A stretch of DNA of 20,000 nt, from NCBI GenBank assembly GCA_016906335.1, contig JADEYG010000015.1, positions 1,297,566 to 1,317,565 on the forward strand. Direction: 5' to 3'. The DNA comes from Novakomyces olei (Eukaryota). A model generated the notes under the pieces. That model had not been told where the DNA came from, ran no database searches, and was given only the letters and a program-made list of their open reading frames with translations. The position numbers were made by a program, and so were the translations under genes. Of the stretch, positions 1-20,000 are shown piece by piece. Position 1 is the first letter of the stretch, and every line of letters begins with the position of its first letter.

Positions 1-25
1 CCGTCAGTATATTCATGCGTATGGC

Positions 26-1450
26 ATGCTAGGCATTAATCAAGCCAGTATTGTCGACGCAAAAGGAAGACCGATACCGCACTCTCCCAAAGATACACGA
101 TTTACCCGCTTTTCTCACGCAAAAGAAATCTCAGTCGGTAATCGTGAAAAATACGGAGACATTTATACAGTCAAGAAAGGCCCATACAAAGAGCTAGTGA
201 TAACAAATCCGGAAGCTTTGCGAGCCCATTATGAGGGCGACGCTATGGCTCACACAAAGCTTGAATCGCTCGGGTTTGGAGCCTTTCTAGGTTCGCTTCT
301 AGGCGAGTGTGTGGGCTTAAAGTATGGAGATGACTGGCGGCGTATCCGTCGTGCTGTCGATCCCTACTTCACGCACAAGGCGGCAATGCTTTCGCTTCCA
401 GCTACGTCTCAATATTTGTTTGAGTGGGCTGGACACGATCTGCCACGCATGAAAGAGGCAAATCACACTGCCCCTGGTCAGTTCAGTATCCGAGCCATGG
501 ACGCAGTTACAATAGTCCCATTCAAAGCTACAGCTAAGCTCATGTACGGTGACAAGACTATGACTGACGAATTTTTCCGGCAGCTGTGGTCCATAATTCC
601 TTTGCACTCGGACCTGATTAATTTTGCTTTTCTCTCGTCTCTCGGTCGCTGGAACCTGTTTCAGTACACGTGTCTGCCAAAAGCTAACCAGCTGCGAAAA
701 TTCCATAGAACGTTTCGTGCCCTCAACATGTGGATGGTGCGCGACGCGCAGGCAAACAATGAAAACAGTATTGTATTTGAAATGTACGAGCAGGTGAAGA
801 GTGGAAAACTGACGTTTGACGAATGGATCCAGACAATTGACGAGATTCTGTTTGCTAATATTGATATCACTGCGGCGGCAATGGCCTGGATGATTATAAT
901 TATTGCCCGTGAACCAGGCTACCAGGACAAGTTGCTTCGCGAGTTCCAGGACAGAATTAGTGACAGCTCGGATGAGAATGAGACGGCACTGTACATCAAG
1001 GACACACAAACAGAGCTCCATCGAGCAATGACAGAGGCAATCAGAGTCCAGCCTGTTGTGTGGTATGGATTTCCTGAGCTCACACAGGCGACAAAAGCCA
1101 TCCAGGGCTATGTCGTTCCCTCTCGCACTCCGGCAACTGTTGACGTGTACCAGCTAAACACGCAGTCTCCCATATGGAATCCAGCAGATAAGCCTAAAGG
1201 CTACGGCAATGTTTTTGATCCAGACCGGTTTATTTCGCTAAACGTTACCGATTATGCCTGGTCCTTTTTCCGCTTTGGTAATGGACCTAGAAAGTGCCTC
1301 GGACGTAACTTTGCTGAATCCCTCCTCAAGGCTGAAATATTCCACGTGTTTTCCCGCTATTCTGTACAGTTGCTAGACAAGGTTGAAATACGTCGCGATA
1401 AATTCACGGCGCAGCCTGAATGCCGTCTACTCTTTACACAGCGTGAGTAG
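26..1450 (+). CDS. Cytochrome P450, GliC/PUL2-like (diketopiperazine-oxidising type); probably 5'-partial
   Basis: Heme motif FGNGPRKCLG, ExxR (EAIR), PDRF, I-helix DEILFANIDITA, and LLGECVGL..GDDWRRIRR resembling GliC-type P450s from recall. The frame is open back to position 2 (RQYIHAYG-M) and there is no N-terminal membrane anchor, so the true start may lie upstream of the window. Confidence 0.9.
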   Translation: MLGINQASIVDAKGRPIPHSPKDTRFTRFSHAKEISVGNREKYGDIYTVKKGPYKELVITNPEALRAHYEGDAMAHTKLESLGFGAFLGSLLGECVGLKYGDDWRRIRRAVDPYFTHKAAMLSLPATSQYLFEWAGHDLPRMKEANHTAPGQFSIRAMDAVTIVPFKATAKLMYGDKTMTDEFFRQLWSIIPLHSDLINFAFLSSLGRWNLFQYTCLPKANQLRKFHRTFRALNMWMVRDAQANNENSIVFEMYEQVKSGKLTFDEWIQTIDEILFANIDITAAAMAWMIIIIAREPGYQDKLLREFQDRISDSSDENETALYIKDTQTELHRAMTEAIRVQPVVWYGFPELTQATKAIQGYVVPSRTPATVDVYQLNTQSPIWNPADKPKGYGNVFDPDRFISLNVTDYAWSFFRFGNGPRKCLGRNFAESLLKAEIFHVFSRYSVQLLDKVEIRRDKFTAQPECRLLFTQRE

Positions 1451-1677
1451 ATCGGTTCGTTATTGGGTCGGTTCAATATTAGGTCCGGCTAGGAGGAGGT
1501 ATTTGGCAAGCGCATTGATTTGCTTTGATTTGAATGATCGAATAAATTGACTTTTTAAAAGGCCTTTTTTAATATAGTATTAAATAATAGCAAATACTAT
1601 GTAATAATCATGATCACTGCTAGAGTAATAAACGCTGGTTTTCAAAACCCCATTTGTGCAAGCAACTCTGCCAGTCT

Positions 1678-3075
1678 TCAAACCTTGGCCGACAATGAGG
1701 GCCCCACCTTGATAATTCTAGCCAGTGTCATAAAGGCAGAGCCAGCCAGAATAACGACGCCAGTGAATATTATCATGCGGGAAAAATCTGTTCCTCTTGT
1801 AAGAGCTCCAGCAATAGGAGAGCCGGTGAGGGCAGCAATGCTGATAATTTGGAAAGAGATGCCAATCCTCTGGCCCAGCACTTGGATAGAGGGACTCAGT
1901 GACGCAATCACTCCAGTCAAAAGGCCGACATAGGCACCTGAAAATATGCCAAACAGCAAACAGAAAACAATGTAGCCGCCTCTGTTGGTTGCACCAAACC
2001 AGGCAAATACAATAATACCCGTAATGACTACGCACGGGATCATCAAGTTTAGTGCTCCGCGTCTGTCGGCAATCATGTTTGGCACAGTCCGGCCGATAAT
2101 GGAGCCGGCATTCGTTATCGGGAGGGAATAAAAAGTAAGAGTCTGTGATATGCCATTGGCTAAGCCAAAAGATTCAAGGAAAAAGAAGGGCGTAAAAAGT
2201 CCCCACATGGTGAGAAAAGCACCACCGACAAAAACCATAAACGGAAGATCTTTGAAAGCACTCGTATCGTACAATAAACTGGCTGGCCGAGGAGGGATAC
2301 GGGTTTTTTGCATAAGGCATGTTCCAGCGAGACACGCAAGAGAGATGAAAGCCACAACTCGCACGGTCCAGCCAAAGCCGATTCGTGGAAACAAACGATT
2401 CAATATGATTGGGAAAACGACGCCGCCAAGAGAGGAACCGGTAGCGACAATACCAAAGCCAATGTAGCGTCTAAGCTTCCACCAGTGGCCTACAACTGCC
2501 ATAGCCGGGAGAAAAATACAGCCCATACCAATGCCCATACAAAGAGACTGAGCGAGGAAGAACTGGTAGTAGCTCTTGCACAGAGAAAGCATAAAAATCC
2601 CAACTAGAAATAGTAAACTGCCTCCCGTAATCAAGTAACGAAAGTAGCCCATGTCAAACAGGTGGCCCGAGAAAATACCACAAAAGAACATTATAAAAAC
2701 TTGCACGGATCCGATCCATGAAATATTGCTCGGCGTTTGATGACTCAGCTGATGGCCCTCATAATAAGTCTGAAACACGCCAAAACAATTGACTATACCA
2801 AACGTACAAAAGAGGCCGAGCCATCCACCGATCACTACGAGCCATGCCTCAAGACCACCGTCGGGAAATGCAAAGTCTGGAGGTCCATTGCCTGCACTTT
2901 TGACTTGCGACTCAAATGACTGATCTTTTCCTTTTCTCTCGGGCGCAGAACCTTCATATCCTTTCTCTTCGTCATTCAAGGAATTCGCGGACACCCGTTG
3001 AGTTTCGTTGAGCTGCTGCTGTCCATCATCATGCGGCCAGCTGTCTGGCAATTGCTGTGCTGTACTGTTTGCCAT
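1678..3075 (-). CDS. MFS transporter, monocarboxylate porter (MCT/Mch-like) family
   Basis: FPDGGLEAWLVVIGG, FGVFQTYY, SNISWIGSVQ, GHLFDMG, GSSLGGVVFP, ADRRG motifs; about 12 hydrophobic segments; intronless 465 aa. Confidence 0.93.
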   Translation of the reverse strand: MANSTAQQLPDSWPHDDGQQQLNETQRVSANSLNDEEKGYEGSAPERKGKDQSFESQVKSAGNGPPDFAFPDGGLEAWLVVIGGWLGLFCTFGIVNCFGVFQTYYEGHQLSHQTPSNISWIGSVQVFIMFFCGIFSGHLFDMGYFRYLITGGSLLFLVGIFMLSLCKSYYQFFLAQSLCMGIGMGCIFLPAMAVVGHWWKLRRYIGFGIVATGSSLGGVVFPIILNRLFPRIGFGWTVRVVAFISLACLAGTCLMQKTRIPPRPASLLYDTSAFKDLPFMVFVGGAFLTMWGLFTPFFFLESFGLANGISQTLTFYSLPITNAGSIIGRTVPNMIADRRGALNLMIPCVVITGIIVFAWFGATNRGGYIVFCLLFGIFSGAYVGLLTGVIASLSPSIQVLGQRIGISFQIISIAALTGSPIAGALTRGTDFSRMIIFTGVVILAGSAFMTLARIIKVGPSLSAKV

Positions 3076-3287
3076 AGCTCGTTATGTTTGGAGCACTTTG
3101 AAAAAGCACATTTTGTACAGAGCGAAAAGGCCTCATCTTTATAGATCTTCCTGTTTATCTGTCAACACTCTTTTCCTTGCTCTTGCGACTCGAAAGTGTC
3201 GATCCAAAAGAAGATTGCACTGCGCATGCTCTCCTTGTCGGAGGTACACCTTGTTCCAGTTCGGAAATAGGTCCAAAAACGTGATAA

Positions 3288-3302
3288 CTCCGTGTTTCGG
3301 AG
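3288..3302. promoter_or_regulatory. Candidate Zn2Cys6 binding site CTCCG-N5-CGGAG in the MFS promoter
   Basis: Perfect inverted pentamers containing everted CCG/CGG triplets about 215 bp upstream of the MFS ATG. A TGATAA lies at 3282-3287 and a TATAAAG on the minus strand at 3143-3137. Confidence 0.35.
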
Positions 3303-3735
3303 AAATGCCTGAAAAGCTGGTTAAGCATGGAACAATAAACTACAGAATATTACTTTCTAATGAATCCAAGTCATTGGATTACTTAAAGTGTAATGCTCCA
3401 TTTTAGGCTAAATTCCTATCAGCTGGACGGTTTATCAAAAAAAAAAGGCAGCTGCTCATCAAGAATAACTAGACTTTAATTAGAGTTTGAAAAGAAGTAA
3501 ATGTAGAGGGGTGCAGAGTTGTTTGCCAATAGTGTGAGGGCACATACGACGATGTCAGCAACTCAGCAACAAGTACTTGGAACGGTTCGGACTATACAAT
3601 GCTGAATAAACAAGGCACAATAAGTTCTTACGTCTACACTTTGAACGATAAGCAGGAAGCACGATACTCGAAAAGGGTCTTACGGTCCAAAACAAGTGCA
3701 ACGAGTATGTGTTCAAATTATAATTGAATTCGTCT

Positions 3736-5526
3736 TTAAAACACAATAGCAGCCCAGTGCATTTGAAAAGAATCTAGCTGAGCAAGAAACGCTTCTAAAT
3801 CCGGATGCATCTGTCCAGAGCTAGGGCTTCCGGCGGATGCAATTTGCTTCGTTTTTACTCTGCGAATCCGCATACAATCATGTGCCCAGCGCTGGCGCTC
3901 AGCGAGAAAGACACCAAGAGCGCCGAGAGTTTCAATAGCGAGATCAATCTCCAGGCCCTCATCGTCAGCTGGCATCTCTGGCGCCTGCAATGATTTGTAG
4001 CTAAAGAGAGCCAAAAGCACCATACAAGCAGCCCATACAGTCATGAGAGCGGATCGAACTGGATAGGCAAAATGCCAATCCAGCTTTTCACGGTGCTCAA
4101 GGGCAAAAGAACGGCCGTATCGCTGCCACAGAGTACGGATCGATCGGCGAGCAAGGCGGTTTGCTATTTGCACCAGCTGTGGGGTCATTTGCGTACCAGG
4201 ATTAGCCAAAATATTACGGAAAAAGAGCAGCTTTGAGCGGACAAGCATAAGCTGCAATTCGTCGTAATGAAATGGCTTCATCTCAACCACATTGTTCTCA
4301 AAGCTAAAGTCAAAAATCATACGCTCGAGCCTCGCCACATCAATGGTTAAATCCAGCTCAGGTCGGCCTAATTTTGCAACATCAGACACTAATTTACAGA
4401 TGCTTATTTTGCCCTGAAGGTAAGCAAACTCATAGTCCTCACGACCACCCAGACTCGGATGGGGCGCGCTTATTTCTTCGGCCATAAGAACAAGTGGCCG
4501 GCCGGAAAAGGCCTTGGTCATGCACGCAGAGGTCCATGAATGCCAAAAATGCCGGCAAATACGCTCGTACATTACTTGATCGTCAATCTGCAGAAAAGTG
4601 CCGATTTTATGATAGCCAAGAGAAATTGCCATACTCATAGACATGAACGAGTACCCTAGTTGAGCTTCAATTGAACAAAATACATTCATAAAATTAGCCA
4701 GTAACGTAATGGCACACAGACCATTCAGAGAAGGTTTCTCCAACGTGTCGGCCACAAGTGATTTTGCTTGAATAAACAGGCTTTGCGCAAATGATCTGCC
4801 ATTCCGCGTTCCTGACGAGTGCTGATCGATATTATTTTCCCACCCGTTTTCCATTAGCGAAGCAAGTATCAGCGCCAGTATAACAAGCAACTTGTTATCT
4901 TGGCCAGTTAAACTGCACGAAAAAGCTGTAGACCACATATCACGGTACACAACCTCAAATTCGCTTTTACTGATGCCGATAAATGGCCTGTTAGCATCGC
5001 GAAATAAAACTTGTACCAATTGATCGCACGTCTGTTTTGCTGGAAGCCCTCCACCATAGTAGTCCGGTGATTGCCTGCGTAAACGCGAAATCTGTTCATT
5101 AGTTTGTCCAAATATATGTTCAAAGCCGACTAAACTTGGCTGAACATTCGAGTCTGAGTTCGAAACTCGCATTTCGTAACTGCCATTTCCACGCGCGTCC
5201 CGAACACGCTCGGTATCGAAGTGTAATCTTTGATTGGAACCAGAAGCCTTGCTACTGTTGCTGCTGCTAGTGGGAATACCTGCACTGTAGCTGCTTTCAG
5301 GAGAAGTTGTCTGCGGCTCTAAATTTCTGTTAAAAAGGATATGTTGTTCATAATCACGAGTATGCAGATTTTTGCGCCGCTTGTCTCGCGAATAATTGCA
5401 TTCAGCAGGAGGTCTCGATTCAGAGCAGCTACGACACACAGGCAGGGCACGATTACACTGGATCTTTTTCGCTCGGCAGCGCTCACACGCTCTTTCAGAA
5501 TAATGGTCCTGGCCTGGATCCATCAT
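3736..5526 (-). CDS. Zn(II)2Cys6 fungal transcription factor with middle homology region
   Basis: CERCRAKKIQCNRALPVCRSCSESRPPAEC binuclear cluster; AISLGYH...ERICRHFW...SGRP fungal TF region. The ORF track starts at a TTG (5547); the first ATG is at 5526. Confidence 0.92.
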   Translation of the reverse strand: MMDPGQDHYSERACERCRAKKIQCNRALPVCRSCSESRPPAECNYSRDKRRKNLHTRDYEQHILFNRNLEPQTTSPESSYSAGIPTSSSNSSKASGSNQRLHFDTERVRDARGNGSYEMRVSNSDSNVQPSLVGFEHIFGQTNEQISRLRRQSPDYYGGGLPAKQTCDQLVQVLFRDANRPFIGISKSEFEVVYRDMWSTAFSCSLTGQDNKLLVILALILASLMENGWENNIDQHSSGTRNGRSFAQSLFIQAKSLVADTLEKPSLNGLCAITLLANFMNVFCSIEAQLGYSFMSMSMAISLGYHKIGTFLQIDDQVMYERICRHFWHSWTSACMTKAFSGRPLVLMAEEISAPHPSLGGREDYEFAYLQGKISICKLVSDVAKLGRPELDLTIDVARLERMIFDFSFENNVVEMKPFHYDELQLMLVRSKLLFFRNILANPGTQMTPQLVQIANRLARRSIRTLWQRYGRSFALEHREKLDWHFAYPVRSALMTVWAACMVLLALFSYKSLQAPEMPADDEGLEIDLAIETLGALGVFLAERQRWAHDCMRIRRVKTKQIASAGSPSSGQMHPDLEAFLAQLDSFQMHWAAIVF

Positions 5527-7905: not shown

Positions 7906-10123
7906 GTATTTCACACCCGCGACGTGGCACCGAGATGGAAGTCGATCCAAACAACGAGATGTCGGCTACGATTCAACAAATCCTTAGGGATATGAGTTCT
8001 AGAATGCAAAACCTGGAACAGGAAAACCTTCAGTTACGAGGTCATGTGATGGATTTGAGTTCAAGAACCAGTGGACACACTTCGAATTACCGGGAACCAA
8101 AGCTGGCTACACCGCCACTGTACCACGGAGAACGAGCGAAGACCACGGAGTATCTTACGCAAATCAAAATGTACATCGACAGTCAACCGACGAGATTTAC
8201 TACAGAGAGACAACAAGTTATGTTTGCTGCATCCTATTTGAGAGGCTCTGCATTTAGATGGTTTGAACCACATGTGAAGACAGACAACAGTATGATCCTA
8301 GACGACTTTGACGAATATTGTACGCAGTTAGAACGAATGTTCGGAGACCGCAATATTCAGAGAACAGCGCAGAAACAGATACGTGAACTACGACAGAGAC
8401 GATCAGTTGCACAGTATGCTGCAGAATTTAACCGCTTGCGTGCGTGGATCAATTGGAACAATGATCCATTGATATCACAGTTTTACGAAGGGTTAAAAGA
8501 CGAAATGAAAGACGAATTGGCCAGAATGGATGAGCCAAACGACATTGACAAACTCATTGACGAGTGTATTAAAATTGACAACAGACTATCAGAAAGAAAG
8601 GGGAACAACGGTCGTTTCCTAACCCATAGACCGCAACAACCAGTATCGAGAGATAGGGGAGCTGTGCCTATGGACGTCGACATGGTACAAGCTCAGCCCG
8701 CAAAGAATGCCGCTTGGAACGGACATAATAGCGGACAACAGAATATGGTCGCTCAATCAGTCGCTAAGAACAGAGGTTTTAGCGGACACAACACGGAGCC
8801 ATCAGACAAGTATACAAAGGGCCGCATAAACATGCCCAAGATACAGTGCCAACGCTGCCATAAGTTTGGACACTATGCCAAGAATTGCCGAAGCACATTT
8901 CCGGCACGAGATATGACGAGAGAACGTCAAAATAACGCTTTAAGTTTGGAGGAGACGATGGTCTACCAGTCTGAACATGATGAATTCAGTGAGAATGAAG
9001 ACACTATGCCCCAACGAGTGGAGGTAAATGTGAAAATAGGAAATGAGAGTTTTACGGCTTTAGTTGACTCCGGCGCGAGCTCAAGCTTTATGCACTGGAA
9101 GCTAGCAGATAAGTTGAAGATCGAAACTGCTCCATTAAAGAATCCTATTACTGTACGCGTGGCTGACGGGAGAACTATACGTTCACGTCAAGCAATTAAG
9201 CGAACCGACAGTTTGAACCTGAGTATCAATGGATACGAGACGGATACAAGATTTTTAGTTGCCGAGATCGGAACAAATAACATGTTACTGGGAGTAGATT
9301 GGCTAAGAAAGCACAACCCCATAATTAATTGGAAAGAAGGTACTATTGCATGGGAGACGACCAGTAATACCTTCACGGAAACATCAATGAACACCGAATT
9401 TGAACCTCACACTGAGGAAGTAAGTGATTCAACAGACGATGAAAACATAATTACATCTGCCAAAAACGAGGACGTTCTGGAATTGGACATTACAGAAGTT
9501 ACCTCAACTGCAACCAAGATACCAGAAGAGTATCAGGAATTTAAAGATGTATTTGGCGAGCAAGAACAATTGGAACTACCGCCACACCGCTCATACGATC
9601 ACGAAATCGTACTAGAGAAAGATGCCAAGATCCCATTCGGACCAGTTTATGGAACTACACCGAAAGAACAAGACTATCTACTAAAGTACTTGGAAGAAAA
9701 CTTGCAATCAGGATTTATTCGAAAATCTAAAAGTCCAGCTGCATCACCTGTACTATTTGCACCGAAGAAAGACGGTGACCTTAGACTCTGTGTCGACTAC
9801 AGAGCTTTAAACAAAGTTACAGTGAAGAACCGTTATCCTTTGCCGCGCATTGATGGACTTATTGATAAGTTAGCGCAGGCCATCTACTTCACTAAACTAG
9901 ATTTGCGAGGTGCATACAACCTCATCAGAATTAAGAAAGGAGACGAATGGAAAACAGCATTTCGTACTCGCTATGGATTATTTGAATATCGCGTAATGCC
10001 ATTTGGACTTACAAATGCACCAGCGACGTTTCAAAATTTAATGAATGACATATTTCGAGATATATTAGATGTCAAAGTTTTGGTTTATCTAGACGACATT
10101 CTAGTATATAGCAAGACCCTTGA
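7453..10123 (+). mobile_element. Ty3/gypsy (Tf1/sushi-type) LTR retrotransposon 1, 5' part, interrupted in RT
   Basis: LTR TGTTA...TAACA followed by a gag-PR-RT ORF; inserted in the copia pol. Confidence 0.93.
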
Positions 10124-10151
10124 TGTTACGGTGCGCTATATGAGGCGCTAG
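7935..10151 (+). CDS. Gypsy gag-protease-reverse transcriptase polyprotein, truncated (native sequence ends near 10123)
   Basis: Retrotransposon gag ([33 protein letters not shown]), [18 protein letters not shown], protease LVDSGA and [46 protein letters not shown]. The last residues are read from the next LTR. Confidence 0.93.
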
Positions 10152-10515
10152 CTAGCGCTGAAGATAGCGCTTTTACATCCTTTAATTTGTTTTGTTTCAC
10201 TTTATTTTGTGTTACGACTTCTATTTTTAATTAGTTCTATTTATAACTCTTAGCTTCTATTTTTAGATAGCAACTTAGTTAGTTTAATTAGTTTAGTTTG
10301 ATTAGTTTCTCGGGCAAAGCCCCACGGAGCGTCATAAGAATGGGACACTCCCCTCTTATGTTCGCTACGTGTAATCAAATCTTGGTGTGCAATATTTTGG
10401 TTTTCTATTACTAGGTTCCCTACTTTCCACGTATCCTCAACAGAGCCAGCGTGAGATCTGGCATATTCACCTTATTGCACCTTTACGACTTTTTGGAAGT
10501 AAAGCCCCCATAACA
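10124..10515 (+). repeat. 5' LTR of gypsy element 2 (392 bp)
   Basis: Same termini as LTR1 and the same CCCC.TAACA-GTATT junction; self-primer ACGTGTAAT at 10367-10375. Confidence 0.85.
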
Positions 10516-10553
10516 GTATTACACGTCCACGATTCTGATTCGAGGATACAACG

Positions 10554-10930
10554 ATGTCGGCAGCGGATTTTGAGCAGTTGAATAGGTTTCTTGAGCAAAC
10601 CACAGCGCGTTTGGAACGGCTGGAGAAAGAGAACCGCACTCTCGCTGACCAACTCGGTATCGCTAAGGGAACCGTGCAGGAACGAGGGTCGAAGGAGCCT
10701 AAAATGGCACCACCACCATTCTTTTCCGGCGAACGCTCGAAAACTGGTGAATTTTTGACCTGCGTGAGGATGATTATTGGCAGTCAACCAGATCGCTATC
10801 GCTCGGCGCGACAGCAAGTGATGTTTGCGGCGTCTTACCTTCGCGGAGCGGCTTTCAGATGGTTTGAGCCTCATGTGAGAAACGAAAATGAAGTTATTCT
10901 CGACGATTTTGATTGTTTTTGTGACACGCT
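10554..10930 (+). pseudogene. Truncated gypsy gag (ORF runs on into foreign DNA to 11009)
   Basis: EPKMAPPPFFSGERSKT...[23 protein letters not shown]...ILDDFD aligns with the element 1 gag; similarity stops after CDTL near 10930. Confidence 0.88.
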
Positions 10931-11227
10931 CTATACATATTCCTGCGCGAATTACGCCGTAATTCGAAATATATGTATCGTAGTTTTTATTAGCTATATT
11001 TTTTGTTAGGGTGTTCTACGTAGAATTACGGCGTAATTCCAGTTTGAAAATTAATTAATGTATGGGAGGGGGGTCATGTGAATTTGCTGCTCGTCGTCGC
11101 GAATTACGGCGTAATTCTAATAAGAATTGAATAACAAATAGTCAAACAGGGTTTTCGAGGGTAGATTTTACTGCATAATTCCAGGTTAATATATGGTAAA
11201 AATCGCGACGACGGAAAGGAAATTCAC
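10931..11227 (+). repeat. Subtelomeric module copy A: palindrome array plus long inverted repeat, upstream of the TLH gene
   Basis: GAATTACG-N-CGTAATTC at 10949, 11023 and 11101; inverted arms 11078-11102 / 11203-11227; alignable with 16234-16532. Confidence 0.85.
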
Positions 11228-11316
11228 ACTATTAATAATAAGATTCGCATTATATCGAAAATAGATTACAGCATGTTTCTAGTAGTAATTAAAGACTTGA
11301 ACAGATATACTCAGTC

Positions 11317-14300
11317 ATGGAGTACTTGGGAATCGAGGAGGCCTTTGGTTTAAAGGTAGTTGCTTGCAAGGCTTGTCGGGCATGCGTAAAGGTCGAGGTT
11401 GGAACCAACGCAGCCGAAAGGCATTTGCGTCAGGCGCATAAGCTAAAGTCAACTGAACTTCAAATTGCACTTTCTGTAATTAATGCAAACGACGTGAATA
11501 TCGCTCCTGTTTTGAATATATATTGGAGCACGCCGAGCCTGCGTGAAGTGGTTGAACCGTTATTATTTCTAAAGGTTTGCCAAGGCTACTACTGCAGTTT
11601 TTGCTATGATGCTGCTTCAACATCGCGAAAGGTCATTGAGCAGCATATCTCAAAAGAACATACTGTTCGAACATCAAAAGATCATATTGTTTGTTCACCC
11701 CTACAAACTTGTTTTACAGAGAATCAATTTCTGAAATATTTTCGTGTTGCTGCGAAAGATGGTTTAAAACCAAGCTCAAATTCAGCCGCGGAGGGCGTTG
11801 TAGGAAAGTTCTTGGAAAAGACCCTTATAACCCTTCCCAGTGCTGCAACAGAAAGTGATGTCGATCAAAGAGACATTCCACCGTGGGTCACGAAGTTTGG
11901 GTTTGATCGAGTCTGTTTACAAACGGAAAACCTGAGCAATTTCGAATCCACAGTGCTTGACAGTATTGATGAACAAATCGAGCTTTTATATAACAATATA
12001 TTTGATGAAAGCAATATGAAAATGACTTCAGCTATGGCGACTAGACTGAGTAGTTTTGTGCCGGACAATTCTGGACGAGTGCGCCACTTTCGACGAACAA
12101 CTTTACCTGCGACTAAGAAAAGATATTTTTCGTACTGGGCTCAGGCAATTCGATTTTTCATTACTCGACTGATGTTGAACTGTGACGACGCTCAAAGGGC
12201 TAATGTCGAGGGGACTGTACTTGCAATCAAAGCTGGTCTATTTGATACTGCGCGACGGTTTCTTTTTTATATTGGTTTATATCTTTTAAAACAACCAATT
12301 AAAAACAACGATTTTGATTCTGCACTCTTAAGCTTTTGTGCATCATGTGCTTATTTATATCAAGGAGATGCTTCAAAAGGCTGGAAACCGCCTAATGGAT
12401 TTAATACGATATTATCTGGATTGATTTACTGCGCTCAATTAACTTTGTTTGAAGAGGCTTGCTCGCAGCCGGGAGAGGCTAGTTCAAACTTGGACATTTT
12501 AGTTGAGCAGTTTCTCAACCCATCAAGAAGTACTGCGGTTGGAGTTCTTCTTAATTGGAGAGCTTATCTTTTTCAGTATACAAAATATTATGTTAATCCG
12601 CACCAATGTACCTGGGATATTGCAGAGAGAGAAGTCTCTTACAGAGGAAGTTCTCTACGAATGGCCGAAATCACAATTTTATACAAACGCGCAGTTTTGG
12701 CAGCCTACGGAATTTTAAGCGACAGTCTTTTGTTTGGAATCAACTACAAATTTCTTTCGACAAAATCTCTTCGTGATTTAATTCATATTTCACAGCCTGG
12801 CTACTGGTTTGGGATAGCAGCTGAAAACAAACATTATTTAAAAGAACATGAAAACTGGCTCGTTCGTCTATTGCAATCAAATACACGTCTAACAACTTAT
12901 TTTCATAACGGAACAGGAGACTGGGACAAATCAGCCATTGCGCGGTATTTGGCTGCGGTACACACATTTTTGCGATGGATATGGACACTATTAACAATAT
13001 CAGCGCCCCCATTGCGCGGTACGGAAACCATAACTATATGGTTCAGAAATGGAAGGAGAGGGCGAAATATATTATTAAAGATGGACAGATGCTAGTATAT
13101 ACAACCTATACTAAAACACAAAACATTACTGGGCGCCCGCGAGTCCTTGCACGGTTTCTAACTCACGAAGTGGGGAACTTGGTTCTGAATTATTTGATTT
13201 ATATTCAACCGTTTACTGAATACTTACAGGGTGTCCTCGGGAACGCACTATCTCAAACGGCATTATTTGTGTCACATGGAAAGGAATGGGACGGTAAGTG
13301 CCTTTCTCGGTACTTCGAGCAGTCTTGCGCACATGCAAGTGTTCCAACGTTGTCAATATCTGCCTGGCGGCAGATTGCTTCGTCCATTATAAATGTCAAA
13401 TTCTCAAAACACATCGCAGACGTTGAGGACAACAGTGACGATGATGAAGGTCTTACTATGACTCATAATGCTGTCAATTTAATACACCTATCGAATCACA
13501 GTGTCGCAACACACAGTACAATGTACGGAAACAGTAGCGGTTTGAAGAATACGGCTGATCTTTGGCTCAACCATAGTTGGAAGGCGTGTCAGTCATGGGC
13601 GGATTTCTTCAAAATGTCTGAACAATATATTCATGCTACGGACAAGATCGAAAATACTAAAGCAGTACCAGAAGATTTGGAAGTCTCCATTGGTCAACTG
13701 AAAAAGAATGCATTTAGAAAAGCAAAAGAGCTGTTTGGTTCTGATTTTGAATTCCGTGCTGCAATACAGGCGGATGCTATTGTAGCAGTTGCCCGAAAGG
13801 TACAGGAAATAGTTATTGTATTTCCTACTGGGTTTGGAAAGACATGTGTAATCCAGGTTGCAGCTTGCTTGCCGCAAGCTTCATGCACAGTGATGGTTTA
13901 CCATTTGTGGCGTTGATGATTGATGTGGAACGTCGGTCCAAACTAGTGGGGATCGACACTGGAATATGGACCGCGAATGATTCGCCGCAAAAGTTTTATC
14001 GCTTAACCTTGATGTCGGTGGAGACAGCTGTGTCGGACTCGGGACGGCAATATTTAACACTTTTACGCCAAAGAGGAATTCTTGATCGATTGGTAGTCGA
14101 TGAATGCCATTTGGCATTTACTACGTCATACAGAAAGGCAATTCAACAAATACCTAGTTTAAGACTATTGGATGTACCAATAGTGCTCTTGTCGGCAACG
14201 CTTCCTCCGTGCAAAAGGAGCGAATTTATAGACCATTTTGTGCTAGAGAATCCGACTTGGTTTAAAGTACGATGTCGTAGACACAACATTGTTTACAAAG

Positions 14301-15421
14301 CGAGGCAAGCTACTGGAGCACTACAGTCCGAAGTAATAAATACTCTGAAACAATTTGAATTCAAAGATGAAGATGATCGCGTAATGTGTATCGCAAGAAC
14401 AAAGTCAGACGCCGAAACAATTGCTATTGCTAGTCGTGCGCATTGCATAACATCAAAGCTTAGCTTTGCTGAGAAGGCTGGAATAATAAATCGGTGGATA
14501 TTAGGTGAGAAAAGCAAAGTATTAGTTGGAACGACTGCTATTGGAACTGGTGTTGATTTCCAACATGTGAGACTGGTTGTGCATGCCAAAGCGCCTTACA
14601 GTTTGGTAGACTATTTCCAAGAATCAGGACGTGCTGGAAGAGATGGCAGAAGAGCCGAGAGCCTAATCATATTTAGTGAGGATGATCTAAGCACAATGGA
14701 GAAACCATTGAGAAGATATGTACATGAAACAGAGTGCAGGAGATTAGTACTAGACAGATATTTCAACGACTATGATGAAGACTTAGCGCGATGTCAGACG
14801 GACGAGAATCATTGTGACTTATGTCAGATGTCGAAGCGCCGCAAGGTCCGGGCTGAAGCAAACGAGAGGCAGCCCGATTGCCGATATGGTCGACAAGCCG
14901 TGTTACAGAGAGATCGGTCGAACATCATAATTGCTGAAGATATTCACAATTTAATGCTTTATCTTTCAGACAAATGTGTTTTGTGTCTCCTTTCCGGTGC
15001 TAGTCAGTACTCACACGGCTTTGGCCAATGCCGGAACAGGATAAAGTTTTTGTACTTGGACGCCAAAAGAACAGTATTGAAAGCAAATCAGCGAAATTGG
15101 ATAAAATCTGGGAGCGTTTGCTATCGGTGCTACCTACCTCAAACAATATGTCGGACGGCATTTGAGAAAGAGGAACGGCAATGTCAATATTCAGACAAGA
15201 TCATGCCATCGTTATTTACTATATTTGAATTAGCACACGAAAAATTAGAAATGAAAGACAAACTAAAAACCTGGACTGGTGAAGCTTTACCGGCCAAAGG
15301 CACAGCATGCTTATTGTGGGCCGGTCAAATCACAATCGGTCCCACACAAATAGCGGGTGTAAAGTTCGTGCATTGGTATTTCAGCAATGACAGGCCAACC
15401 AAAATGGCGGAACAAAAGTAG
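11317..15421 (+). CDS. Telomere-linked RecQ helicase (TLH-like) with N-terminal C2H2 fingers and a putative tyrosine-recombinase-like domain; two frameshifts (about 13072 and 13898)
   Basis: Joins ORFs 11317-13095, 12975-13916 and 13844-15421. CKAC..HLRQAH and CSFC..HISKEH fingers; Walker A PTGFGKT; VVDECH; LLSATLP; GTGVDF..VRLVVH; YFQESGRAGRDG; RecQ Zn motif CRR..YF..C..CDLC; C-terminal Cys clusters. Adding one T at each shift gives a single 1368-aa protein. Confidence 0.88.
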
Positions 15422-15604
15422 TTTGTTGGATCTAATTTATCTTCATTTATTGTATTAATATGTGATTCAACGTATGCAGGATTCATAGATATAATGGAAA
15501 ATTTATGAATTGAAACCTATTATATGTCGAGTGTGGCATCACGAATTTATTCAACTATAACTATAGTATGGAGAGCAATTTTATAAGTAATGCGCAAGTT
15601 ATGC

Positions 15605-15692
15605 AATAATGTATGGAGGATTATTGTATGGAGTATTATTGTATGAAGATTATTGTATGAGGATTAATAAATGGAGGATTAATGTATGGAGG
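15605..15692 (+). repeat. Short degenerate tandem repeat (about 15-bp unit GTATGGAGGATTATT)
   Basis: About 5-6 imperfect copies; same family as the 17-kb minisatellite. Confidence 0.7.
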
Positions 15693-15773
15693 ACCCTAAT
15701 TCCAAATCATTGGCAATCCATATTGCAGCGAGGGTAGGGTTGCTGAACTTATAAATTATAATTATTATACAAG

Positions 15774-16060
15774 ACGTACATATTCCAGCGCGCATTACGC
15801 CTAGCTATTATTACTAGCGACATTTCGACGAAATGTCAGCTGGTATTATTTTTTTTGTATAATAATTGCATTATGTCTAAAATTCGAGAAAACCCTATCA
15901 CTGATATTTCGGCGAAATGTCGCAAGGCGCTAGTGGATTGCCATATATTAAACTGCGAAAAGTTCCCCTAAAAAAGTTGCGACATTTCGACGAAATATCG
16001 CTGAATACAGCGATGCTATTGGATAATACAGTAGCGCAAGCTGAATATCGACGAAATATT
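15774..16060 (+). repeat. Diverged module copy with GACATTTCG-N-CGAAATGTC palindromes
   Basis: Starts with TACATATTCCAGCGCGCATTACGCC (23/25 identical to 10934-10958); palindromes at 15819-15837, 15903-15921, 15981-15999 and a degenerate one at 16044-16060. Confidence 0.8.
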
Positions 16061-16232
16061 GATAGGCTGTGGATTTTTGATAAATTCATCACAGCCATTG
16101 CTTGGGGTAGGGTAAGGGTATATTATAAATAATAATATTATTGCATCGCACATGGCACATAGTATAGTTATCTGATAATATAATATAGTTATTATGGAGA
16201 GAGCACCATAGTAATAGAGTATAATAAGAAAA

Positions 16233-17004
16233 ACTAGATATATTCAAGACGGAATTATGGCGAAATTCCATTTTTATGTAATGCGATTCTTATTATGTAT
16301 AATTCTAGTCAGGGTTTTCGCTTTTCCTTTACGCCATAATTCCATTTCGAAAAATAATTAATGTATGAGGGGGGGGTCATGCCAATTTCCTTAGCATTCC
16401 CGCGAATTATGGCGTAATTCTAATAAGAATGGTAGGAGAAACGTGGAGGCAGGGTTTTTTAGGGAGAATTTTCCGACTAAATTCCAAATTATAATATGGG
16501 AAATTGCGCGGGAATGCTAAGGAAATTGGCATAAACGGGGGTAAGAACGACGTAAGAGCAAAAATAGTTTCCGCCTTAATTCCAAAACATTGGCAAACCA
16601 TATTGCGGCGAGGGTAGGGTTGCTGAATTTATAAAATATAATTATTATACAAGATGGTCTACACATATTATAGCTATCTGATAATATAATAAAATATTAT
16701 AGAGAGAGCCCCATAGTAATAAAGTATAATAAGAAAAACGTCAGAAAAATAAGAAAAATTAAGAGTGTGTAGTCCATGTGTAGAGGTGACAAAACGTCGA
16801 ATGAACAAGTGTTTTTACAAAAAGTGTATGGTTGGATAGAGGGGTGCAGTAGGAGTGTAAATATATACTTGTTTACAAGATTGGATTAGTAATTATGGAA
16901 ATATATGGGTTTAAAGATTTATAAAAAGCTCATGACGGCGCAGGATGCATTTTATGTGGCATTATAATAATGTATAGTAGAATAATTTATTGTAAAGCAA
17001 TGTA
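16233..17004 (+). repeat. Subtelomeric long repeat copy B (near-identical to 19229-20000)
   Basis: Direct repeat at an offset of about 2995-2996 bp with only a few differences; identical spurious ORFs at 16407 and 19402. Confidence 0.95.
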
Positions 17005-17600
17005 TGTATAATAATGTATAGTATAATAATGTATGGTAATTTAATGTATAGGAATAATGTATGTATAATAATGTATGGTATAATAATGTATGGTATAATA
17101 ATATATGGTAGAATAATGTATTGTAAAGTTATTGTAAAGTAATGTATGTATAATAATGTATGGAGGAATAATGTATGGAGGAATAATGTATGTATAATAA
17201 TGTGTGGTATAATAATATATGGTAAAATAATGTATTGTAAAGTGAATAATGTATGTATAATAATGTATGGTATAATAATGTATTGTAAAGTAAAGTATGT
17301 ATAATAATGTATGGTAAATAATATATGGTAGAATAATGTATTGTAAAGTTATTGTAAAGTAATGTATGTATAATAATATATGGTAGAATCATATGGTATA
17401 ATAATATATGGCATTATAATGTATGGTATAATAATATATGGTGGAATAATGTATGGAGGAATAATGTATGTATAATAATGTATGGTATAATAATATATGG
17501 GGGATTAATGTATGGGAATAATGTATGGGGAATTAATGTATGGGGGATTAATGTATGGAGAATAATGTGTATGGGGGAATAATGTATGGGGGAATAATGT
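16961..17600 (+). repeat. AT-rich minisatellite, 13-15 bp unit TAATAATGTATGG(TA)
   Basis: Dozens of imperfect tandem copies, drifting to the G-richer variant GGGGAATAATGTAT at the 3' end. Confidence 0.92.
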
Positions 17601-17614
17601 ACGGTGATATTTAT

Positions 17615-18390
17615 TTAGGGTTAGGGTTATTTATGATCGAATGGAGTAGAGAATTATATTGAGATTGTTGGATATGAAAGGGAGGGAGAGAGTTGGAGTT
17701 GAGATAGGAAGTAAAGGGAAATAGAAAATGGGAATAGAGTAATGTAGAAGTTGCCAAAAAAATGTTTGATAAAGGACAGTTATTGAAAGGAAGATTGTTT
17801 TAATATTATTTAGTATTTTATAATATTTGGTTAAAGTTTAGAAAGGATCAAATAAAAATGATGATGTAAAAGTTTTAAAAGGGCGGAAAATGTGAATAAT
17901 AATAGATTGAAGGGGTGTGAGGGGATGTGGAAAAGTGATGGGAGATGAAGAAAGAAAGATTTTGGAAGAGTTGAGGGAAGCAGATGGAAGTTGATGGAGT
18001 TAGGAGGTAGGGCTATGGTTAAAGTGAGAAGAATTAGGGTTATTTAGTTCTAAGTGTATGAATGTTAGGGTTAGTAATTTATTATAAGAGAATGATAGCA
18101 TGTTGGGGGAAGAAGTTTATAAAATAGAGAATGGTAATGGGGGTTAGGGTTATGGAGGAATAATGTTTGGTAAAATGATGTATGGGGATTAATGTATGGG
18201 GGAATAATGTATGTAGGAATGTATATGGTATAAATATAAGTATTTATTAAGCATGGAGACTAATATAAATATATTCAAAAAATATATATTCAAGACGAAG
18301 CTATTGCGAAATTTCATTTATGTGTAATGTAATTCTTAGTCTGGGTTAGGGTTAGTCAGGGGGTAGTCAGGGGTTAGTTAGGGTTAGTTA
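17615..18390 (+). repeat. G-rich, C-poor tract with interspersed telomere-like TTAGGG and variants
   Basis: TTAGGGTTAGGG at 17615-17626; single copies near 18034, 18064 and 18144; cluster GGGTTAGGGTTAGTCAGGGGGTAGTCAGGGGTTAGTTAGGGTTAG at about 18343-18387. Confidence 0.7.
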
Positions 18391-18613
18391 CTAATGGTGA
18401 AATTTAGGTAGGGTTGGGCAAAAACTTAGGGAAAATTTTTCGAGGTAGGAAATTTGAGATGCGATTCTTATGCGGAAGCTTTGTATGGAGGTTGCTACGC
18501 GTCCAGTTATTTGTTGTGTAGACAAACAATGAGCGTTGCTATAAACAATGGTTTCCTTGGCAACGTATTGCTTATAGCTTGACGAAGACGCATCGTAAGC
18601 ACCATTGACGGCA

Positions 18614-19010
18614 AGGGTAGGGTTGTTGGATTTATAAATATAATTATTATACAATATGGGCTGCACATATTATAGTTATCTGATAATATAATATAAATAT
18701 TATAGAGAGAGCACCATAGTAATAGAGTATAATAAGAAATACGTCAGAAAAATAAGAAAAATTAAGAGTGTGTAGTCCATGTGTAGAGGTGACAAAACAT
18801 CGAAAGAACAAGCGTTTTTACAAAAAGTGTATGGTTGGATAGAGGGGAGCAGTAGGAGTGTAAATATATATTTGTTTACAAGATTGGATTAGTAGGTATA
18901 AAGATATAGGGCTTTAAAGATTCATAAAAAGCTCATGATGCCCCAGGATGTATTTTATGGGTCGTGTCTATTGTAATAATTTATTGTAAAGTAATGTATG
19001 TATAATAATC
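18614..19010 (+). repeat. Diverged copy of the 3' half of the long repeat (homologous to about 16611-17010)
   Basis: AGGGTAGGGTTG...CTGATAATATA...GAGAGAGCACCATAG...GTCAGAAAAATAAG...GTCCATGTGTAGAGGTGAC...AAAAAGCTCATGA, all collinear. Confidence 0.9.
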
Positions 19011-19052
19011 TCCATTAACGGAAATAATTTACAACAATGTCTGGAGCTAGTG

Positions 19053-19230
19053 TGTTAGGGGGTGACTCAATACAAAGTAATCTTAAGTCGGCCAAGATCA
19101 CACGTTGGCCTTGACAGGGAATAGCAAAAGGATAGGCAGATAGAAGAACTAATCTCAAGACACTTATATTAAGCGGAACCTTGGTTGTTGTAACGCCCCG
19201 AACCCAGTAGAAGAACTCCTCTTCTTATAC
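19053..19230 (-). mobile_element. Partial gypsy LTR (TATA to U5 end), related to LTR1, inverted
   Basis: 19053-19066 is the exact reverse complement of LTR1 end GTCACCCCCTAACA (7892-7905). The minus strand TATAAGAAGAGGAGTTCTTCTACT resembles LTR1 TATAAATAGAGGCTTGTCTTCTACT. Confidence 0.72.
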
Positions 19231-20000
19231 TAGATATATTCAAACCGGAATTATGGCGAAATTCCATTTTTATGTAATGTGATTCTTATTATGTATAATT
19301 CTAGTCAGGGTTTTCGCTTTTCCTTTACGCCATAATTCCATTTCGAAAAATAATTAATGTATGAGGGGGGGTCATGCCAATTTCCTTAGCATTCCCGCGA
19401 ATTATGGCGTAATTCTAATAAGAATGGTAGGAGAAACGTGGAGGCAGGGTTTTTTAGGGAGAATTTTCCGACTAAATTCCAAATTATAATATGGGAAATT
19501 GCGCGGGAATGCTAAGGAAATTGGCATAAACGGGGGTAAGAACGACGTAAGAGCAAAAATAGTTTCCGCCTTAATTCCAAAACATTGGCAAACCATATTG
19601 CGGCGAGGGTAGGGTTGCTGAATTTATAAAATATAATTATTATACAAGATGGTCTACACATATTATAGCTATCTGATAATATAATAAAAATATTATAGAG
19701 AGAGCCCCATAGTAATAAAGTATAATAAGAAAAACGTCAGAAAAATAAGAAAAATTAAGAGTGTGTAGTCCATGTGTAGAGGTGACAAAACGTCGAATGA
19801 ACAAGTGTTTTTACAAAAAGTGTATGGTTGGATAGAGGGGTGCAGTAGGAGTGTAAATATATACTTGTTTACAAGATTGGATTAGTAATTATGGAGATAT
19901 ATGGGTTTAAAGATTTATAAAAAGCTCATGACGGCGCAGGATGCATTTTATGTGGCATTATAATAATGTATAGTAGAATAATTTATTGTAAAGCAATGTA
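19229..20000 (+). repeat. Subtelomeric long repeat copy C (runs off the window)
   Basis: Near-identical to 16233-17004. Confidence 0.95.

Follow-up and report, generated by a model that had tools for sequence, protein, structure and literature searches.

How does one sequence boundary come to be joined, at the same nucleotide, to a series of different upstream sequences near a chromosome end? The question is raised by a 20,000 nt stretch of the Novakomyces olei genome (GCA_016906335.1, contig JADEYG010000015.1, positions 1,297,566 to 1,317,565 of the forward strand; hereafter the window), which from base 10931 on carries a stack of elements built around a putative telomere-linked helicase (TLH) gene. 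The region is a fungal subtelomere with its G-rich strand on +. The + strand is G-rich from 10931 to the end of the window, with a GC skew of up to 0.96 and 18 C in all between 17000 and 18299 (counted in 100-nt bins), and TTAGGG tracts lie on it at 17615 and 18144; skew and tracts together indicate that the + strand runs toward a telomere beyond base 20000. A first-pass annotation had proposed that one left boundary recurs five times, each time joined to a different, cut-off sequence, and that a defined element end is captured by chromosome ends through a tyrosine recombinase and replaces whatever lay distal to it. The boundary itself was borne out: the left end is an intrinsic, defined terminus, common to three diverged module types (~70% identity) and found with ~ten different upstream partners. 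We favour, with about even confidence, the reading that this terminus is enzyme-made and that, probably, the recombinase-helicase of the element itself joined it time and again to pseudo-sites or to chromosome ends that had been truncated. The junctions are referred to as J1 (10930/10931), J2 (15774/15775), J3 (16233/16234), J4 (18280) and J5 (19229/19230).

The five copies of the left end lie where they had been annotated, at 10931, 15775, 16234, 18280 and 19230, and form a gap-free alignment that starts at one shared column; A.ATATTC is invariant in all five, and the general terminus pattern is (C)TAG/TAT followed by A[CT]ATATTC. Within the window, the 18-mer TAGATATATTCAAGACGG was matched with up to three mismatches only at 16235, 18281 and 19231 (three matches observed, 0.01 expected; three or more in 0 of 200 shuffles). 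The boundary is sharp, since in the 10 pairwise comparisons of copies 4-14 of 30 nt were identical upstream of it versus 14-28 of 30 nt downstream. The type 1 copy (10931) and the type 3 copies (16234 and 19230) have diverged to ~70% identity, yet they align gap-free for ~340 nt from base 1, and in these three copies the first palindrome begins 18 nt inside the end (10949, 16252 and 19248).

What precedes the terminus is cut off in every case. At J1, the gag of a gypsy retrotransposon (gypsy-2) is 48% identical to the gag of its neighbour gypsy-1 as far as residue 126, which corresponds to nt 10931, where the homology ends. The long terminal repeat (LTR) of gypsy-2 (TGTTAC...) splits the gypsy-1 reverse transcriptase at 10123/10124, a nested insertion whose distal half is missing because the chromosome was cut in the gypsy-2 gag; the native continuation of gypsy-1 behind 10123 was seen as a loose end in a contig of an independent sequencing run (X2). 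At J2, 15694-15774 and 16574-16654 are 93% identical and diverge afterwards. At J3, 16155-16234 matches 16662-16739 and 19656-19735, both of which continue with GTCAG (at 16740 and 19736). The left end at J4 is preceded by a nearly C-free, G-rich tract, and the repeat that ends at 19229 (J5) is cut as well, as a contig of a second run (X1) continues differently, with a loose end behind 19231. The window lacks the sequence that formerly lay beyond each cut on its distal side. The proposed arrangement, a head-to-tail stack toward the telomere with one coding copy and several non-coding ones, likewise held.

Independent reads were available as Logan contigs from runs X1 and X3, which belong to one study, and X2, which belongs to another, and the evidence was drawn from the longest contigs listed; de Bruijn contigs of this kind also break at repeat boundaries. 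A further run, X4, barely covers the stretch (four contigs with 18-22 nt matched each), and no conclusion was drawn from it. J2 is bridged by X1 record 3 (10931-15831) and X2 record 15, and J4 by X1 record 6 and X3 record 23; X1 record 3 begins exactly at 10931. X3 record 18 follows the TLH element to 10930 and from there departs from the window over 298 nt; in the X3 sample the coding element is thus joined to a different upstream partner. Additional joints to the first base of the type 3 module, or close to it, were found from 12282 to 16234 (X2, 2 nt shared), from module 2, cut near 15893, to 16234 (X1 and X2), from 17947 via TTAGGC to 16234 (X2), and from 15837 to 19228 (X3). About five of the ~ten partners are thus added by the contigs of the other runs, and the partners are cut at at least eight different places. 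Depth along the gene in X2 falls from 18137 (11002-11335) to 3762 (14342-15677), a gradient indicating that several copies share the left end and are truncated at different 3′ points. In X1, depth is zero in the bin 16346-16679 and 75.6 in its twin 19352-19685, which we take to reflect single placement of two 99% identical copies, not absence.

The uncut upstream sequence is known for four junctions, namely J3, J5, 12282 to 16234, and near 15893 to 16234, and in all four it shares microhomology with the terminal bases of the element (C, CT, CT and CTA, respectively). By a rough estimate of our own, with C at ~0.17-0.2 here, four such coincidences would arise by chance with a probability of ~1e-5 to 1e-4. 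Junctions of a second, conventional class occur as well. The left end at 18280 breaks off after ~63 nt and gives way to degenerate TTAGGG repeats (18344-18390), and in X2 both 11416 and 17999 are joined to 18371 via TTAGGG-like filler. This class looks like telomerase healing followed by repeat-primed capture, and shows that chromosome ends of this lineage do undergo truncation and healing by telomerase.

The same junctions could have been made by host repair alone, a rather unlikely explanation in our judgement. The left end would then be the physical terminus of the donor, either a fragment broken at a fragile palindrome or an extrachromosomal linear copy, and the TLH protein would be uninvolved; joining would proceed by end joining, or by microhomology-primed copying from the last bases of the donor (template switching or microhomology-mediated break-induced replication). 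Microhomology of 1-3 nt exactly at the terminal CTAG in 4/4 informative junctions, the arbitrary truncation of the upstream partners, the start of X1 record 3 exactly at 10931, and the ordinary telomere healing and repeat-mediated capture in the same stack (18343-18390 and the X2 joints to 18371) are all as host repair would have it. It would need a separate cause for a nucleotide-exact terminus in three diverged module types, however, and palindromes would be expected to break at their centres instead of 26 nt away; nor would it explain why the candidate recombinase-like catalytic residues described below are conserved.

Two further explanations, considered together, are decidedly improbable: assembly artefact, and ordinary duplication of subtelomeric sequence, in which the boundary would be the edge of an ancestral block copied by homologous recombination or by break-induced replication primed at telomere repeats. 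Precedent for duplication exists in Magnaporthe, where TLH regions meet chromosome-unique DNA at discrete 'near' and 'far' boundaries lying within telomere-like HAR-C repeats (CCTAAC...), and where frequent terminal truncation is described, according to the accessible text of the report (Rehmeyer 2006, PMC1635262). In Fusarium oxysporum (TLHcr), arrays of TLH regions are flanked on both sides by telomere repeats, which thus lie interstitially, again according to the accessible text (Salimi 2024, bioRxiv 10.1101/2024.02.27.582403). From these two reports it follows that a fixed boundary as such is of a known kind. The stack resembles the Magnaporthe and Fusarium TLH regions in gene architecture, a probable location next to terminal telomere repeats and a gene reading toward the end, as well as in a discrete proximal boundary with different partners, arrays, truncated forms and tandem repeats. 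In contrast to those regions, J1, J2, J3 and J5 are free of telomere repeats, with 1-3 nt microhomology where the native sequence is known, and short non-coding deletion derivatives outnumber the gene. Duplication is also at odds with the lack of shared upstream homology at these four junctions and with partners that are truncated transposons and elements, a configuration that transposon insertion cannot produce. As to artefact, J1, J3 and J5 are bridged by none of the contigs listed and the window contains at least two 1-nt errors; on the other side, two runs apiece bridge J2 and J4, the same base has further partners in other runs, and a chance error would not repeatedly fall on one nucleotide.

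Read on the minus strand, the type 3 module ends in GGAATTTCGCCATAATTCC, 13 nt and CTAG, and is followed by T at J3 and J5, which recalls the 3′ end of a Helitron-like rolling-circle element (hairpin, ~13 nt, CTAG) and would make that end the fixed one. This origin is extremely improbable: the minus-strand ends of types 1 and 2 are TATAG and TACG instead of CTRR, neither the 12282 junction nor the one near 15893 has T as its next base, and the type 3 hairpin is weak, folding no better than shuffled sequences (DNA fold z -0.18; type 1, z -2.15). A search of the window for the genes of such an element found no Rep or Pif1-type helicase open reading frame (ORF), the sole element gene being of RecQ type (SF2) and on the opposite strand, and the Helitron candidate was rejected.

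The one gene of the coding element is split over three reading frames in the window (11317-15421). An extra T is present behind 13071 in the covering contigs of X1, X2 and X3 and behind 13896 in those of X1 and X2; both positions lie in T-runs, and two inserted Ts restore a single frame of ~1368 aa, so the gene is intact and the window carries two homopolymer errors. The product comprises an OrsD/C2H2 zinc finger (~11350-11661), a 'TLH domain' (~12796-13620), a RecQ-type helicase (~13821-14650) and a Cys-rich tail. Paired C2H2-type zinc motifs accompany the OrsD match (E 7.4e-07, residues 12-115), which recurs in 6/6 relatives scanned, and a RecQ-type SF2 helicase core is indicated by DEAD, Helicase_C (3.4e-15) and RecQ_Zn_bind (4.1e-4, below the curated cut-off). 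An exhaustive HMMER search returned 169 relatives at E<=1e-3, with the same architecture in 6/6 full-length ones scanned, and a word-based search returned 47 more from ascomycetes, named only 'hypothetical protein' or 'helicase RecQ'; no published named TLH protein was among the homologue hits, the names given being 'hypothetical protein' and 'superfamily II helicase RecQ'. No relative turned up when metagenome contigs were scanned with P0004 and with the helicase part of the window. Many of the relatives (P0154-P0196) stand alone on contigs of 4.7-7.8 kb, which fits a collapsed multi-copy repeat in short-read assemblies. By its architecture the protein matches a telomere-linked helicase, for which two C2H2 motifs, a ~250-aa 'TLH domain' and a RecQ helicase are reported in the accessible text of bioRxiv 10.1101/2024.02.27.582403. 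A conserved domain lies directly upstream of the helicase in 38 aligned relatives, in the position of the published ~250-aa domain, and on architecture and position the two are probably the same. The accessible text of the Magnaporthe and Fusarium TLH reports does not call this domain a recombinase.

The TLH domain (~300 aa, upstream of the RecQ helicase) is predicted to fold as the catalytic domain of a tyrosine recombinase or type IB topoisomerase. An AlphaFold2 model of residues 560-860 of the relative P0001 (pLDDT 81.3, 38-member alignment) gave a best VIA-align Z of 13.0 to archaeal XerA (4a8e; 153 residues aligned, root-mean-square deviation 3.0), followed by 11.2 to XerA and 10.8 to XerH. 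Ten chains reached Z>=8, all of them recombinases or integrases, and 29 rows reached Z>=5, after which the next row falls to Z 3.8; besides recombinases, these rows hold type IB topoisomerases and Ndc10/CBF3, SroF, MrpR and a Zincore chain, which we take to have the same fold. The predicted fold is thus shared with integron IntI (2a3v, Z 9.3), vaccinia topoisomerase (topoisomerases IB, Z 5.9-7.8) and protelomerases (TelA, 3.8). Foldseek ranks 1-18 were all tyrosine recombinases, and clusters of Phage_integrase, NDC10_II and protelomerase appeared as language-model look-alikes at 0.83-0.86, a lead only. In the alignment of relatives, the candidate catalytic residues are kept as R in 37/38, K in 36/38, R in 35/36, H in 33/35 and Y in 34/34, and the candidate R-K-R-H-Y set is complete in the protein of the window (Table 1). 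Conservation does not extend to the His of HxxR, and R and H are separated by an acidic insert of ~30 aa. Otherwise the spacing resembles that of XerD and Cre, including the H-to-Y spacing of 9. Pfam Phage_integrase and DUF3435 gave no match, either to the domain alone or in whole-protein scans that included 6 relatives. A DUF6241 match to the TLH-domain fragment of the window was at chance level and was discarded.

These observations can be assembled into a sequence of events. A chromosome end would be truncated at an arbitrary place, be it a retrotransposon gag, another repeat, an earlier element or G-rich terminal DNA, and the exact element terminus would be joined to it via 1-3 nt of microhomology without telomere repeats; joining to a pseudo-site by unequal exchange would be an equivalent route, and repetition of such events would have grown the stack. 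The precise terminus would most likely be made by the element's protein, with its zinc finger, its tyrosine-recombinase/type-IB-topoisomerase-like domain and its RecQ helicase, and the non-coding deletion derivatives would keep the cis sites and be mobilised in trans. The pattern of an exact proximal end, arbitrary partners, distal loss and variable far-side truncation is that of a product of repeated capping or of one-site unequal exchange. Homology-driven copying cannot fix one nucleotide without shared sequence, and an enzyme-made terminus is therefore favoured; the only enzyme of the element is the recombinase/topoisomerase-like domain fused to the helicase. From this we infer that the protein probably cleaves or joins at the left end and that the direction of events may be judged between capping of truncated ends and reciprocal exchange, where 1-3 nt of microhomology favours cleavage with end joining or priming over reciprocal exchange at pseudo-sites. 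Of the earlier proposal of tyrosine-recombinase-driven capture, the recombinase part finds support in the predicted fold and the conserved candidate set, whereas a classical tyrosine-recombinase crossover is disfavoured by the microhomology and by the position of the junction.

A number of observations weigh against joining by the element's own enzyme. The junction is offset by 26 nt from the middle of the first palindrome. Classical tyrosine recombinases exchange across 6-8 bp overlaps with binding sites flanking them on both partners, and 1-3 nt of microhomology with unrelated partners looks more like end joining or template switching. No defined right end, inverted copy of the left end or target duplication is present in the window, nor was a circle junction seen. 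The tie between protein and junction is drawn from the predicted fold and the content of the element; the fold evidence is itself structural, the best Foldseek E is 6.2e-3 with none <=1e-3, the highest look-alike score of 0.86 is below the trust level of 0.9, Pfam assigns the TLH domain alone to no family at E<=10, and Ndc10 shows that this fold can be non-catalytic. On the side of the reads, the unbridged state of J1, J3 and J5 counts here too, as does X1 record 2, which at a depth of 20.6 runs through the gag and across 10931 into 1951 nt of sequence that differs from the window, so that the gag is uncut at 10931 in the X1 sample. Together with X3 record 18 this is a polymorphism between strains. 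The coding copy looks single-copy in X1 (depth 21.3 versus 20.6 for its neighbour). The additional joints come from de Bruijn contigs, and their short sides measure 20-37 nt, in several cases less than the trust limit of 30-31 nt; joints also occur away from the left end (15801 to 16356, 15839 to 15941, 16140 to 16681, 17156 to 18604, 17178 to 18178 and 17192 to 17010); these link homologous or minisatellite positions, and we read them as ordinary variation.

A fixed end with variable upstream partners could alternatively arise through RNA, which we consider improbable. The left end would be the 5′ end of a plus-strand transcript started by an internal promoter at the palindromic sites and read through to the telomere, and complementary DNA (cDNA) made by a retrotransposon reverse transcriptase would be captured at eroded ends, for which capture of Y′-Ty1 cDNA in yeast is a precedent. 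An internal promoter would account for a fixed 5′ end with variable partners, gypsy reverse-transcriptase genes adjoin, and the junction microhomology fits cDNA capture as well; against this, the window has no poly(A) tract or fixed 3′ end, and the orientation is opposite to the target-primed addition of Drosophila HeT-A/TART.

Joining of an enzyme-made terminus to truncated ends would set the stack apart from several known systems that it resembles in part. Like the arrays of Y′ elements in Saccharomyces cerevisiae (cited in PMC4522978), it is built from a subtelomeric element that encodes a helicase, has been amplified onto chromosome ends and is arranged head to tail. Y′ elements have long been suspected of descent from mobile elements; unlike the modules described here, Y′ units have telomeric repeats between them and owe their spread to homologous recombination or break-induced replication, and we know of no recombinase-like domain in Y′. 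As in Crypton and Starship elements, eukaryotic tyrosine-recombinase DNA transposons whose integration is thought to use very short identities, the gene for the recombinase (here the recombinase-like protein) comes first, a few hundred bp inside one end, and reads inward, and terminal inverted repeats are absent. The differences are a recombinase-like domain fused to a RecQ helicase and a zinc finger, without a DUF3435 or Phage_integrase match, and the replacement of everything distal to the junction, with no right end or two-sided insertion. A Crypton-type element would have two defined ends with both target flanks kept and a circular intermediate; in the window there are no distal target halves, and the copies have neither a common right end nor a duplicated target. 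The left end has no inverted counterpart there, and thus no terminal inverted repeat is present. The Drosophila HeT-A/TART elements likewise form head-to-tail stacks with a fixed centromere-proximal end on a variably truncated older unit. They are non-LTR retrotransposons attached by a 3′ oligo(A) with their genes toward the centromere, whereas the gene here reads toward the telomere in an element without reverse transcriptase or poly(A); with TLH as the only ORF and no poly(A) at the fixed end, a telomeric non-LTR element of the HeT-A/TART or MoTeR type does not fit. As with recombinases that act on hairpins or folded DNA, palindromes and a long inverted repeat adjoin the active end, and by analogy the fused helicase could supply single strands; the junction away from the palindrome centre is a difference from those systems.

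The palindromes share the core ATTnCGnCGnAAT, with flanking bases specific to each module type, and occur three to four times per element at a spacing of ~76-84 nt; 13 of the 14 matches to the core in the window lie inside modules, versus 0.94 expected. Type 1 carries three palindromes of 17 nt, GAATTACG(C/G)CGTAATTC, at 10949, 11023 and 11101. The type 2 palindrome is GACATTTCGACGAAATGTC, with the core ATTTCG(A/G)CGAAAT in the four copies of module 2, and that of type 3 is GAATTATGGCG(T/A)AATTC. The third palindrome is enclosed by a long inverted repeat with arms of 26-29 nt ~100 nt apart (11077-11228, 16379-16532 and also 19374-19527), whose arms differ in sequence between element types with pairing kept; the DNA fold z is -5.4 at 11077-11228 and -6.9 at 16379-16532. 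Copy a of module 3 corresponds at 16234-16573 to the 5′ region 10931-~11279 and at 16574-16654 to 15694-15774. It is an internal-deletion derivative in which the 5′ 340 nt and the tail are kept and ~11279-15693 is deleted. An origin of module 3 from spliced RNA was rejected, as the deletion (~11279 to 15693) has no GT..AG ends and is thus not a spliced form. The tails carry GGGTAGGGT, followed by the 15-nt minisatellite and telomere repeats. The coordinates of all features are collected in Table 1.

Table 1. Features of the TLH stack and its proximal neighbours in the window, in window coordinates
Feature	Position	Strand	Basis or remark
gypsy-1 gag-pol, interrupted in reverse transcriptase	7935-10123	+	Pfam Retrotrans_gag, aspartyl protease, RVT_1
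gypsy-2 LTR and gag fragment, cut mid-gag	10124-10930	+	J1 upstream partner; ORF 10554-11009 matches DUF4939
Coding TLH element as a whole	10931-15774	+	one TLH copy
Coding TLH element, 5′ region (type 1), left terminus CTATACATATTCC	10931-11316	+	alignment, palindromes, fold
Putative TLH gene	11317-15421	+	Pfam, tblastn to P0001, motif coordinates
Candidate R in PPLRGTE	13006-13026	+	
Candidate K in YTTYTKTQ	13098-13121	+	
Candidate second R in SAWRQI	13359-13376	+	
Candidate H and Y in SNHSVATHSTMYGN	13491-13532	+	
Coding element, 3′ part	15605-15774	+	15-nt minisatellite 15607-15693; tail 15694-15774, cut after TATACAAGA
Module type 2, non-coding	15775-16233	+	left end CGTACATATTCC, four palindromes, tail with GGGTAGGGT, cut at AAGAAAAAC
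Module type 3, copy a, tail running to minisatellite	16234-16965	+	alignment
15-nt minisatellite, ~44 units	16963-17631	+	ends in TTAGGGTTAGGG at 17615-17626
Nearly C-free G-rich tract	17632-18279	+	J4 partner; TTAGGGTTATGG at 18144, short minisatellite 18151-18220
Type-3-like left end, cut after ~63 nt	18280-18343	+	
Degenerate telomere repeats	18344-18390	+	
Further module	18391-19009	+	body 18391-18603; tail 18604-19009 (89% to 16602-17015)
Multi-copy repeat fragment, cut at 19229-19231	19010-19229	+	J5 partner; putatively an LTR, as first annotated
Module type 3, copy b, runs off the window	19230-20000	+	99.2% identical to 16233-17004

What is new here are the repeat-free junctions with microhomology, the short non-coding derivatives and the predicted recombinase fold of the TLH domain. 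No paper linking TLH with a tyrosine recombinase was found in the literature searched, outside which lay supplements and many subscription journals. To our knowledge, TLH genes have been on record at the chromosome ends of fungi since the late 1990s, no function is known for either the gene or its 'TLH-specific' domain, and the spread of TLH regions has so far been attributed to recombination at telomere-like repeats. A bolder proposal, which we put forward tentatively as possible, is that TLH proteins are active recombinase-helicase fusions and TLH elements an unrecognised class of eukaryotic DNA element. Such a 'terminal transposon' would move by attaching a single end, made by the enzyme, to chromosome ends that are broken or eroded, and would thereby bring a new telomere with it. 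If so, it would provide a mechanism by which subtelomeres of the TLH type, and perhaps of the Y′ type, spread among chromosome ends, and would explain the retention of TLH genes in fungi and in a choanoflagellate. An exact repeat-free terminus, derivatives with cis sites and a predicted recombinase fold together make the function of TLH directly testable.

Of the remaining sequence, the repeat fragment at 19010-19229 reaches a depth of 88.6 in X1, versus 21.3 for the TLH ORF. Behind the minisatellite (16963-17605) lie ~500 nt of non-repetitive G-rich sequence flanked by two short TTAGGG tracts, and this C-poor tract may be decayed terminal DNA. Proximal to the stack, two nested gypsy elements begin at ~7900, and ordinary fungal genes identified with Pfam occupy 1-5526 (a P450, an MFS transporter and a Zn2Cys6 factor); these three adjoin the transposon-rich subtelomere on its proximal side and are possibly a small metabolite cluster.

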